A stretch of 64,000 nt of DNA, from the NCBI RefSeq assembly GCF_015706575.1, contig NW_024037061.1, forward strand, positions 979,897 to 1,043,896, in the 5' to 3' direction. A program made the position numbers and the translations under genes. Shown here in pieces: positions 34,800 through 36,176 of the stretch. This stretch comes from Patiria miniata. Lineage: Eukaryota. The notes under the pieces were generated by a model that did not search any database, was not told the origin of the DNA, and saw nothing but the letters and a program-made list of their open reading frames with translations. Within the stretch, counting starts at the first letter, position 1. Each line of letters starts with the position of its first letter.

Positions 34800-35126
34800 G
34801 TATTTGTTAATTCATGCGTGGATATTTAGTCATCTACCTGTCGTAAGACCCCGTGCCAATTTCACGAAATTGTACGCAGTGGCTTCAATCCACTCAAACC
34901 ACATTTTTATTGTGTAAGTTGGGCAAGAATCTACATTGCGCCAAATTTCAGTCGTGACACGTGTTGGAAAAGTTTCTCAATGCGTAAGTCCTTAAACTTG
35001 ATGGCTTCAACCCGCCAGCTTGAGGTCGAGTTAAAAGTAATCCCAGGCCTCGTTCTGTTCTTGTCAAAATCATCCCGGCGCAAACTGGTTAAAGAGCAAA
35101 TTCTGATGTTGTTGTTTCATCAACAG

Positions 35127-35214
35127 ACAGCAAAGCAACTGAAGGATTTCTATGGTAACGTAAAGCGTGATGAGGACATGTTAGACCGGGCCCGTGCAGC
35201 AGTTCATGATGAAG
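35127..35214 (+). CDS. PARP4: PARP4 exon 26 (short form)
   Basis: Acceptor gttgtttcatcaacag, donor GAAG|GTATTT giving phase 1, which is required by exon 27. An alternative perfect donor CAGG|GTGAGT at 35258/35259 sits at the terminus of a foldback MITE. Encodes TAKQLKDFYGNVKRDEDMLDRARAAVHDE. Confidence 0.6.
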
Positions 35215-35253
35215 GTATTTTGTGTGACTTCCAATATCCAAATCCTTTCTGTT

Positions 35254-35935
35254 ACAGGGTGAGTCAAAAAAAGCGGAACCCAAACCCCCAAAAATATATT
35301 TCATATTTAAAAAAATATGTAGCACCAAAAATAATAATGACTGGAAAGCCAATTTCATAAAGCTACTTTTAGATGAAAAAATACTGAAATTGCTCAATCC
35401 GTTCAAAGAATATCACCATTTAAACGCAACGACCCTAAAACCTGTCTCGTCCAAAAAAGCAATTTATTGTGCGTTTTGACTGTTTGGAACAACAAAGAAA
35501 ATGACACAGAATACTTGTTTCAACAACTGTCACCACCTGTAGTGCACAATATCTTTATTAACAACCCCGGTTAGGCAAACAATATAATTTATAAAATCTA
35601 CTTTTTTTAAAAGATGGGCCTTCAAAAAGACTTTGTTGAATATTTAAACGTTTAAACTGAGGTTTTATCGCTGGTGATGTTTAAAGACAATTGTGATGCC
35701 GATTCTTGAAATCACATTTATTTTTTTGGACGAGACAGGTTTAGGGCCATTGTGTTTAAATGGTGATATTCTTTGAACGGATTGACCAATTTCAGTAATT
35801 TTTTCATCTAAAAATAGCTTATGAAATTGGCTTTCCAGTCATAATTATGTTAGGTGCTACATAGTTTTTAAAAATGAAATATAATTTTTGGGGTTTGGGT
35901 TCCGCTTTTTTTGACTCACCCTGTAGAAAACAGTG
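35254..35935. mobile_element. Foldback MITE of about 680 bp, TIR ACAGGGTGAGTCAAAAAAAGCGGAACCCAAACCCC (PARP4 intron 26, abutting exon 26)
   Basis: Long arms at 35254-35470 and 35700-35935 are reverse complements. The left terminus creates a CAGG|GTGAGT donor and the right terminus an acceptor-like ccctgtag. Confidence 0.75.
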
Positions 35936-36176
35936 CATCGGAGCAAAAGAATGTAAAAGTTGGATGAAGGATCGTTGTTGACACGTGTATTACATTGTAT
36001 TTACATGTATTTCCTAATGAATACTACAACCAATTATTTAGTGCTTTGGCTTTTCGGGATGGTACAGAGTGTAACAGATATTATTTTTGGGGGCAAGGGA
36101 GGGGATCCAGAGCCTTATGGGTTTCTGTTAATGAAGTACATTGTAAATATCAAGCATTTTCACATTTTATTTGCAG

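Follow-up and report, generated by a model that had tools for sequence, protein, structure and literature searches.

What becomes of a gene when a transposon-like element with a good splice-site motif at its end lies shortly downstream of one of its exons, and is such a motif used, ignored or brought under control? This question is raised by a stretch of 64,000 nt of Patiria miniata DNA (RefSeq assembly GCF_015706575.1, contig NW_024037061.1, positions 979,897 to 1,043,896 of the forward strand; hereafter the window), in which a foldback element lies in the intron that follows exon 26 of PARP4. A first-pass annotation of this DNA had seen here a candidate case of transposon-mediated splice-site creation, possibly linked to regulated unproductive splicing. 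One part of this proposal was retained in our analysis, as a transposon-like foldback does bring a consensus 5′ splice-site motif whose use would be unproductive, but the donor is a predicted one. We consider it probable that a miniature inverted-repeat transposable element (MITE) inserted passively in the PARP4 intron, and that its splice-site mimic (the decoy) plays no regulatory role, being either silent or the source of no more than a minor unproductive isoform.

The element spans positions 35255..35923 and is 669 bp long. The inverted repeat described earlier is therefore real, although its length is not 680 bp. A left arm (35255..35458) and a right arm (35722..35923) enclose a central loop of 263 bp of unique sequence (35459..35721). 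The left arm is 92.3% identical to the reverse complement of the right arm over 207 aligned positions when the flanking TA dinucleotides are included (35253-35458 and 35722-35925, blastn), and each arm is about 204 bp long. The terminal repeat starts with CAGGGTGAGTC, and the terminal 27 nt (CAGGGTGAGTCAAAAAAAGCGGAACCC) are the same at both ends, where 0 matches are expected by chance. The termini are better conserved than the interior. The complementarity of the arms stops exactly at a TA on the left (35253..35254) and on the right (35924..35925). These two TA fit a putative target-site duplication, whereas a duplication of 3 bp or 4 bp does not fit; a 2-bp match occurs by chance in 1 of 16 cases. 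Folded as RNA, the element is predicted to form a single extended hairpin with an energy of -343 kcal/mol (z = -21 compared to shuffled sequences).

Terminal inverted repeats, TA flanks, a small size and no detected coding capacity are among the features by which MITEs are recognised, and these were found here. The only internal open reading frame (ORF) that was scanned against Pfam (65 aa, 35377-35571) gave no match, and an Rfam scan of the element for a structured RNA or microRNA family, the central loop included, gave nothing beyond noise. From the TA flanks and the terminus we infer a non-autonomous, Stowaway-like MITE of the Tc1/mariner type with unusually long arms. Its terminus starts with CAGG; mariner ends typically start with ..AGGT... 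No tandem sub-repeats were found in the element. We also considered an inverted-repeat/direct-repeat (IR/DR) architecture, in which the transposase-binding site of the terminus is repeated further inside each arm. The best candidate, GTC(A/C)AAAAAAGC, was equalled in 23 and 50 of 500 shuffles and is not significant.

A blastn search with the element revealed no further copy in the window. Exact scans with the terminus and an inner 22-mer in metagenome contigs, and with the terminus in viral contigs and prokaryote genomes, did not find a copy either, but this means little because these collections hold almost no animal genomic DNA. The terminus was not found in full-text literature, and a protein search with the stop-free translation of the left arm, aimed at spurious ORFs on other copies, gave no relatives.

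When the element and one TA are removed, the reconstructed empty site reads ...CCTTTCTGTTA|GAAAACAGTG. Its core, as expected in an allele without the element, is ...TGTTAGAAAAC... / ...CCTTTCTGTTAGAAAACAGTG.... At the insertion point the sequence before insertion is TGT TAG, and because this TAG is an in-frame stop, the flank was already intron when the element arrived. The element had been described as abutting exon 26. Instead, 40 nt of intron (35215-35254) lie between the exon and the element. In the history that we favour, a non-autonomous cut-and-paste DNA transposon would have inserted at a TA, 40 nt into a pre-existing intron of 291 nt, and this intron (35215-36176) is now 962 nt long. 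The terminal repeat carries a mimic of a consensus 5′ splice site at the element's 5′ end in either orientation, probably as a by-product of the end sequence of the element and not of selection at this locus.

Two further observations concern repeats in the same gene. A second hairpin element of a different family lies at 30150-30314 in another PARP4 intron and has 81-nt arms (91% complementary) and a 3-nt loop. A 35-nt repeat adjoins it (30322-30356) and has a second occurrence shortly before exon 26, at 34896-34931. In addition, 13 nt of the terminus of the foldback element (AGGGTGAGTCAAA) recur at the real donor 24304|24305 (window 24297-24317), with no further similarity found; beyond the donor consensus this likeness is probably a coincidence.

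Exon 26 and its two candidate donors

The host gene lies on the + strand from about 17925 to 45619 and is an orthologue of PARP4 (vault PARP). The order of its domains is that of PARP4: BRCT, PARP catalytic, VIT and VWA domains, a conserved post-VWA segment and a C-terminal region, with matches to PARP4 and PARP4-like proteins. The conserved post-VWA exon is most similar to named proteins from Branchiostoma, Lytechinus pictus, Antedon mediterranea and Lottia gigantea, and the C-terminal exons are found downstream at 45377-45619. Full-length orthologues were obtained by a search of representative proteins with a single conserved exon. A search with the spliced peptide of exons 25 to 29 gave no match, and exact look-ups of three ORFs of the window were likewise empty. 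The one related contig that was found (L001) shows 76-82% nucleotide identity in exons, but ends about 490 bp past the exon at 33053-33268 and thus before exon 25.

Five consecutive exons on the + strand were rebuilt around the element. Exon 25 (34641-34799, 159 nt, phase 0 to 0) has tblastn matches to proteins of L. pictus and Mytilus coruscus. Exon 26 (35127-35214, 88 nt, phase 0 to 1) was placed by alignment to orthologues and by the phase chain, and its donor AAG|GTATTT at 35214|35215 is identical to that of exon 25. Exon 27 (36177-36236, 60 nt, phase 1 to 1) has a single open frame and good AG/GT borders and fits the phase chain. The acidic exon 28 (37755-37973, 219 nt, phase 1 to 1) determines in which phase exon 26 has to end, and exon 29 (38153-38218, 66 nt) is again phase 1 to 1. 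When spliced at their AG/GT borders, these exons (34641-38218) give one open frame of 197 aa, and they do so only with the donor at 35214.

In a phmmer alignment the L. pictus protein XP_054753684.1 spans the junction of exons 25 and 26 and continues to residue 24 of exon 26 (...LLEK|TAKQLKDFYGNVKRDEDMLDRARA compared to ...YIKTASALHEFLRDSKRELDKADQLSR). The L.DFY motif of this exon is also present in Sinanodonta woodiana KAL3858028.1 and in one further homologue (P0156). As the alignment crosses the junction and the motif recurs, exon 26 is genuine and is translated in the frame that was first assigned to it. A shorter exon 26 of 28 nt, ending ATG|GTAACG and also delivering phase 1, was ruled out, since the sea urchin alignment runs on through residue 24 of the exon.

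The decoy, AGG|GTGAGT, lies within the left terminal repeat at 35256..35264 on the + strand and would be cut at 35258|35259. It was correctly noticed in the first-pass annotation as CAGG|GTGAGT, and is situated 44 nt downstream of the phase-correct donor GAAG|GTATTT. It had also been argued that the gene must use this upstream donor to stay in frame, and our rebuilt phase chain agrees. Every later defined exon is a multiple of 3 and starts in phase 1, so that exon 26 must end in phase 1 whichever exon is joined to it. Extended to 35258, exon 26 has 132 nt and ends in phase 0. When this long form is joined to exon 27 the reading frame shifts, as predicted earlier, and runs HWSILQ and then into a premature TGA at 36195..36197 on the + strand. 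Stops were also met when exon 27 was skipped, and in all combinations tried. Between the element and exon 27 we found no frame-restoring acceptor for the long form with a pyrimidine tract like those of real acceptors. The premature stop lies upstream of many exon junctions, with coding exons reaching to 45619. A transcript that uses the decoy would thus gain 44 nt and a frameshift with a premature stop in the next exon, which makes it a likely target of nonsense-mediated decay.

The frame of exon 26 does remain open beyond its donor, as had been pointed out (..HDEGILCDFQYPNPFCYR / through GILCDFQYPNPFCYR). These 15 extra sense codons are at chance level: 15 random codons stay open with a probability of (61/64)^15 = 0.49. 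The open read-through carries no coding weight, because such an opening arises by chance in about half of the cases and the frame was closed by the TAG at the insertion point before the element arrived.

Donors were scored with a generic weight matrix. The decoy reached 6.0 bits and the real donor of exon 26 reached 1.5 bits, about 4.5 bits apart. The upstream donor is therefore weaker, as claimed, yet it is typical of this gene. Ortholog-supported donors span 0.1-7.5 bits, and the exon 26 donor lies inside this range. Five further donors (25013, 29664, 30829, 31138 and 32076) score 0.1-2.2 bits and are within about 1.5 bits of it. According to our reading, the gene would have kept its ancestral donor AAG|GTATTT at 35214|35215 after the insertion. 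As soon as the right arm has been transcribed, base pairing between the two arms is predicted to give a stem of about 200 bp, and the decoy would then be buried at the base of this stem.

Several side observations were made on the same gene. A candidate cassette exon of 42 nt at 37079-37120 (cttcatgcag|CAGCC...GCGAGG|gtgagt) is phase-neutral and encodes PAYSPTSPGYYMGE. It sits in a direct duplicate (36971-37079 compared to 37659-37755, 72% identity) of the sequence that immediately precedes exon 28, and the peptide that it encodes is similar to the beginning of exon 28 (APSYSSALDSYAEDDE). The donor of this candidate exon, AGG|GTGAGT, is as strong as the decoy. Further downstream, an uninterrupted ORF of 963 codons at 40437-43328 is rich in Pro and Gly and repetitive, with units such as GGLFGGPSL.SGFDEG..LG.QPP.EAG.P. 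The ORF appears to be a giant PARP4 exon, with a weak match to residues 2031-2338 of a PARP4-like protein of L. pictus (2520 aa). In the bivalve PARP4 orthologues of M. coruscus (P0122) and S. woodiana (P0173) a ubiquitin-like domain directly follows the helices equivalent to exons 25 and 26. Two Branchiostoma models (P0125 and P0129) terminate in 14-3-3-like sequence, apparently through the fusion of gene models. Finally, a tandem duplication of 86 bp (33635-33720 and 33725-33810, 95% identity) was found in the intron that follows the exon at about 33443-33559.

Alternative explanations

Several points weigh against a passive, largely silent insertion. A single copy of the element was found anywhere that we searched, so its description as mobile and multi-copy derives from its structure, and a 2-bp duplication is weak when taken alone. 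Exon 27 was placed by its frame and splice signals and is not conserved in the orthologues found; this is immaterial to the frame argument, because all exons after exon 26 need phase 1. Before the right arm exists, the decoy is predicted to be as open as the real donor, at an unpaired probability of 0.28-0.33. In addition, the decoy should compete on sequence alone, as it exceeds the real donor by about 4.5 bits and sites of this strength are nearly all real donors in this gene.

The last two points lead to the alternative that the decoy is used substantially. PARP4 would then be a leaky or hypomorphic allele in which many transcripts, with 44 additional nt and a premature stop, are degraded, as unregulated damage and not as a control device. 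The decoy fits the consensus, outscores the real donor and is only 44 nt away from it. Among 1317 GT sites on the + strand between 23000 and 45700, which covers most of the gene, only seven score as high as the decoy, itself included. Four of the six others are ortholog-supported donors, one ends a candidate exon and one (44147) has no assigned exon. The decoy would also be accessible in the nascent transcript. As its pairing partner is transcribed about 650 nt later, binding of U1 during transcription is possible. In the complete folded intron, on the other hand, the decoy is predicted to be fully paired, with a mean unpaired probability of 0.00 over its nine positions compared to 0.38 for the real donor. 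Moreover, the gene routinely uses donors of the GTAT type with AAG upstream, which indicates that a strong match at +4 to +6 is not needed. On balance we regard a leaky allele as unlikely, although it is the main rival to a passive insertion.

The element could also be splice-competent itself and be excised, as an intron within the intron, between 35258|35259 and 35926|35927, in which case its family may create introns elsewhere. Introners are MITE-like elements that do this by bringing one splice site and taking the other from the target duplication; they are widespread in aquatic eukaryotes and have been reported in the sea urchin Strongylocentrotus purpuratus (PMC11282704, PMC12130899). In the element studied here, GTGAGT is present at the 5′ end, while a T-run, a branch-like TTGAC motif and CCCTGTAG are found at the 3′ end. 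The 3′ end reads T-run, TTGAC, CCCTG-TA-G because the terminal repeat continues with an A-run after the 5′ splice site. Excision at the TA|G site would leave exactly 3 additional nt (CAG). The right end of the element reads ...tgactcaccctgtag|AAAACA and had been called acceptor-like for its ccctgtag. This sequence, cttttttttgactcaccctgtag (35906..35926, + strand), is indeed present, with a pyrimidine content as high as that of real acceptors, but its AG consists of the A of the TA duplication and a fortuitous host G outside the element. As the AG needs this host G, the acceptor is no built-in feature of the element. Reading on past it, a TAA is met after 9 codons. The site is also mostly paired (predicted mean unpaired probability 0.09), so that both splice sites of such a nested intron would be buried in the stem. 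Finally, the borders of the present intron (35215-36176) differ from those of the element (35255-35923), lying 40 nt upstream and 251 nt downstream of it. It is therefore very improbable that this is a splice-competent MITE or introner of an invertebrate animal, spliced as a nested intron here and making new introns elsewhere.

A local inverted duplication that arose in place, without any transposon, would explain why the palindrome is single-copy in all data searched, with TA flanks that have a chance of 1 in 16. As noted above, the single-copy result means little in collections with hardly any animal genomic DNA. Both arms stop abruptly at a TA, the terminus starts with CAGG and the termini are better conserved than the interior, which is the standard anatomy of a MITE of the Tc1/mariner type. 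We give an origin as a simple palindrome very little credence.

Could cells switch between the two donors to tune the output of PARP4, so that a transposon-derived site has been co-opted for regulated unproductive splicing? The geometry alone, with two competing donors of which one is productive and the other leads to a premature stop, fits this proposal. However, no conservation, sign of selection or recognisable regulatory motif was found, and the site is intrinsic to the terminal repeat and the same at the other end of the element. Known cases of regulated unproductive splicing are usually conserved. Here the site came by insertion into what was already intron, so that deep conservation is not expected. 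We consider such regulation most improbable.

A wrong gene model in which the long exon 26 (to 35258) is the real coding exon has in its favour a frame that is open through the extra 44 nt and a consensus donor, but it is hardly credible, as the exon ends in phase 0 while the downstream exons (60, 42, 219 and 66 nt) need phase 1, the combinations tried meet stops, no frame-restoring acceptor with a realistic pyrimidine tract follows, and the frame was closed by TAG before the insertion.

Other features of the window

Three matches to tRNA models were found, at 5274-5345 (- strand), 20580-20652 (+ strand) and 28108-28180 (+ strand), of which two are inside PARP4 introns. They look like the heads of tRNA-derived short interspersed nuclear elements, and further occurrences of a related tail motif (cttaagcaagacacttaacc) lie near 26370 and 29170. 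Runs of at least 19 G (or C) occur at 36320-36342, 12713-12732 and 14072-14090, and one of them is about 85 nt downstream of exon 27. On the - strand, a single ORF of 254 codons at 52114-52878 encodes a C-type lectin domain and, after it, a PAN/apple domain. This is probably a separate gene on the strand opposite to PARP4; no record of its product was returned by an exact look-up.

Comparison with known systems

We judge the event at this locus to be an ordinary intronic transposon insertion, as splice-site mimics derived from transposons are already well known. In its anatomy the element resembles Stowaway-like MITEs of the Tc1/mariner type such as MADE1, which is derived from Hsmar1. It shares with them the short, non-coding sequence, the terminal inverted repeats, the TA flanks, the CAGG terminus and a transcript that is predicted to form a hairpin. 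Unlike the usual members of this group, the element has very long arms (about 204 bp of 669 bp), and these give it a foldback shape. Long inverted arms that snap back are also found in the Foldback (FB) elements of Drosophila. The arms of FB are built of tandem sub-repeats and its insertions have 9-bp duplications, whereas the element described here has no tandem sub-repeats and is flanked by TA.

The modes of splicing that are linked to MITEs in mulberry are predominantly alternative 5′ and 3′ sites (PMC6593561). Like the splice sites and exonized sequences that derive from MITE and Alu insertions, the intronic transposon in PARP4 brings a splice-site mimic. In those cases the use of the site is visible in transcripts, whereas in PARP4 it is predicted, and the product would be out of frame. 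Tc1 is reportedly spliced out of C. elegans pre-mRNAs by sites in or near its ends, and the same is said of Ds and dSpm in maize transcripts. Here too the ends of a DNA transposon supply cryptic splice sites. Tc1 and Ds/dSpm, however, sit in exons and their removal restores function, while the element in PARP4 is an intron insertion and use of its site would destroy the frame. The locus further resembles alternative splicing coupled to nonsense-mediated decay in that two donors compete and one of them yields a premature stop with many junctions downstream of it. Established cases of this kind are conserved and have been shown to be regulated, whereas the site in PARP4 is a transposon terminus and a putative donor.

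Like introners, such as the Micromonas IE families and those of S. purpuratus, the element is MITE-like, carries GT at one end and would take its AG partly from the target-site duplication. In contrast to them, it lies inside an older intron with other borders, and its AG needs an additional host G. Were the comparison to hold, an animal MITE with both ends pre-shaped as splice sites would bear on the origin of new introns. This is the sole angle of wider interest, and the behaviour is not displayed at this locus. If the decoy is used at all, the element would be one more transposon end that rewires host splicing, in this case by lowering the output of the vault-associated PARP4, and would join the well-documented examples of Alu elements, plant MITEs, Tc1 and Ds.

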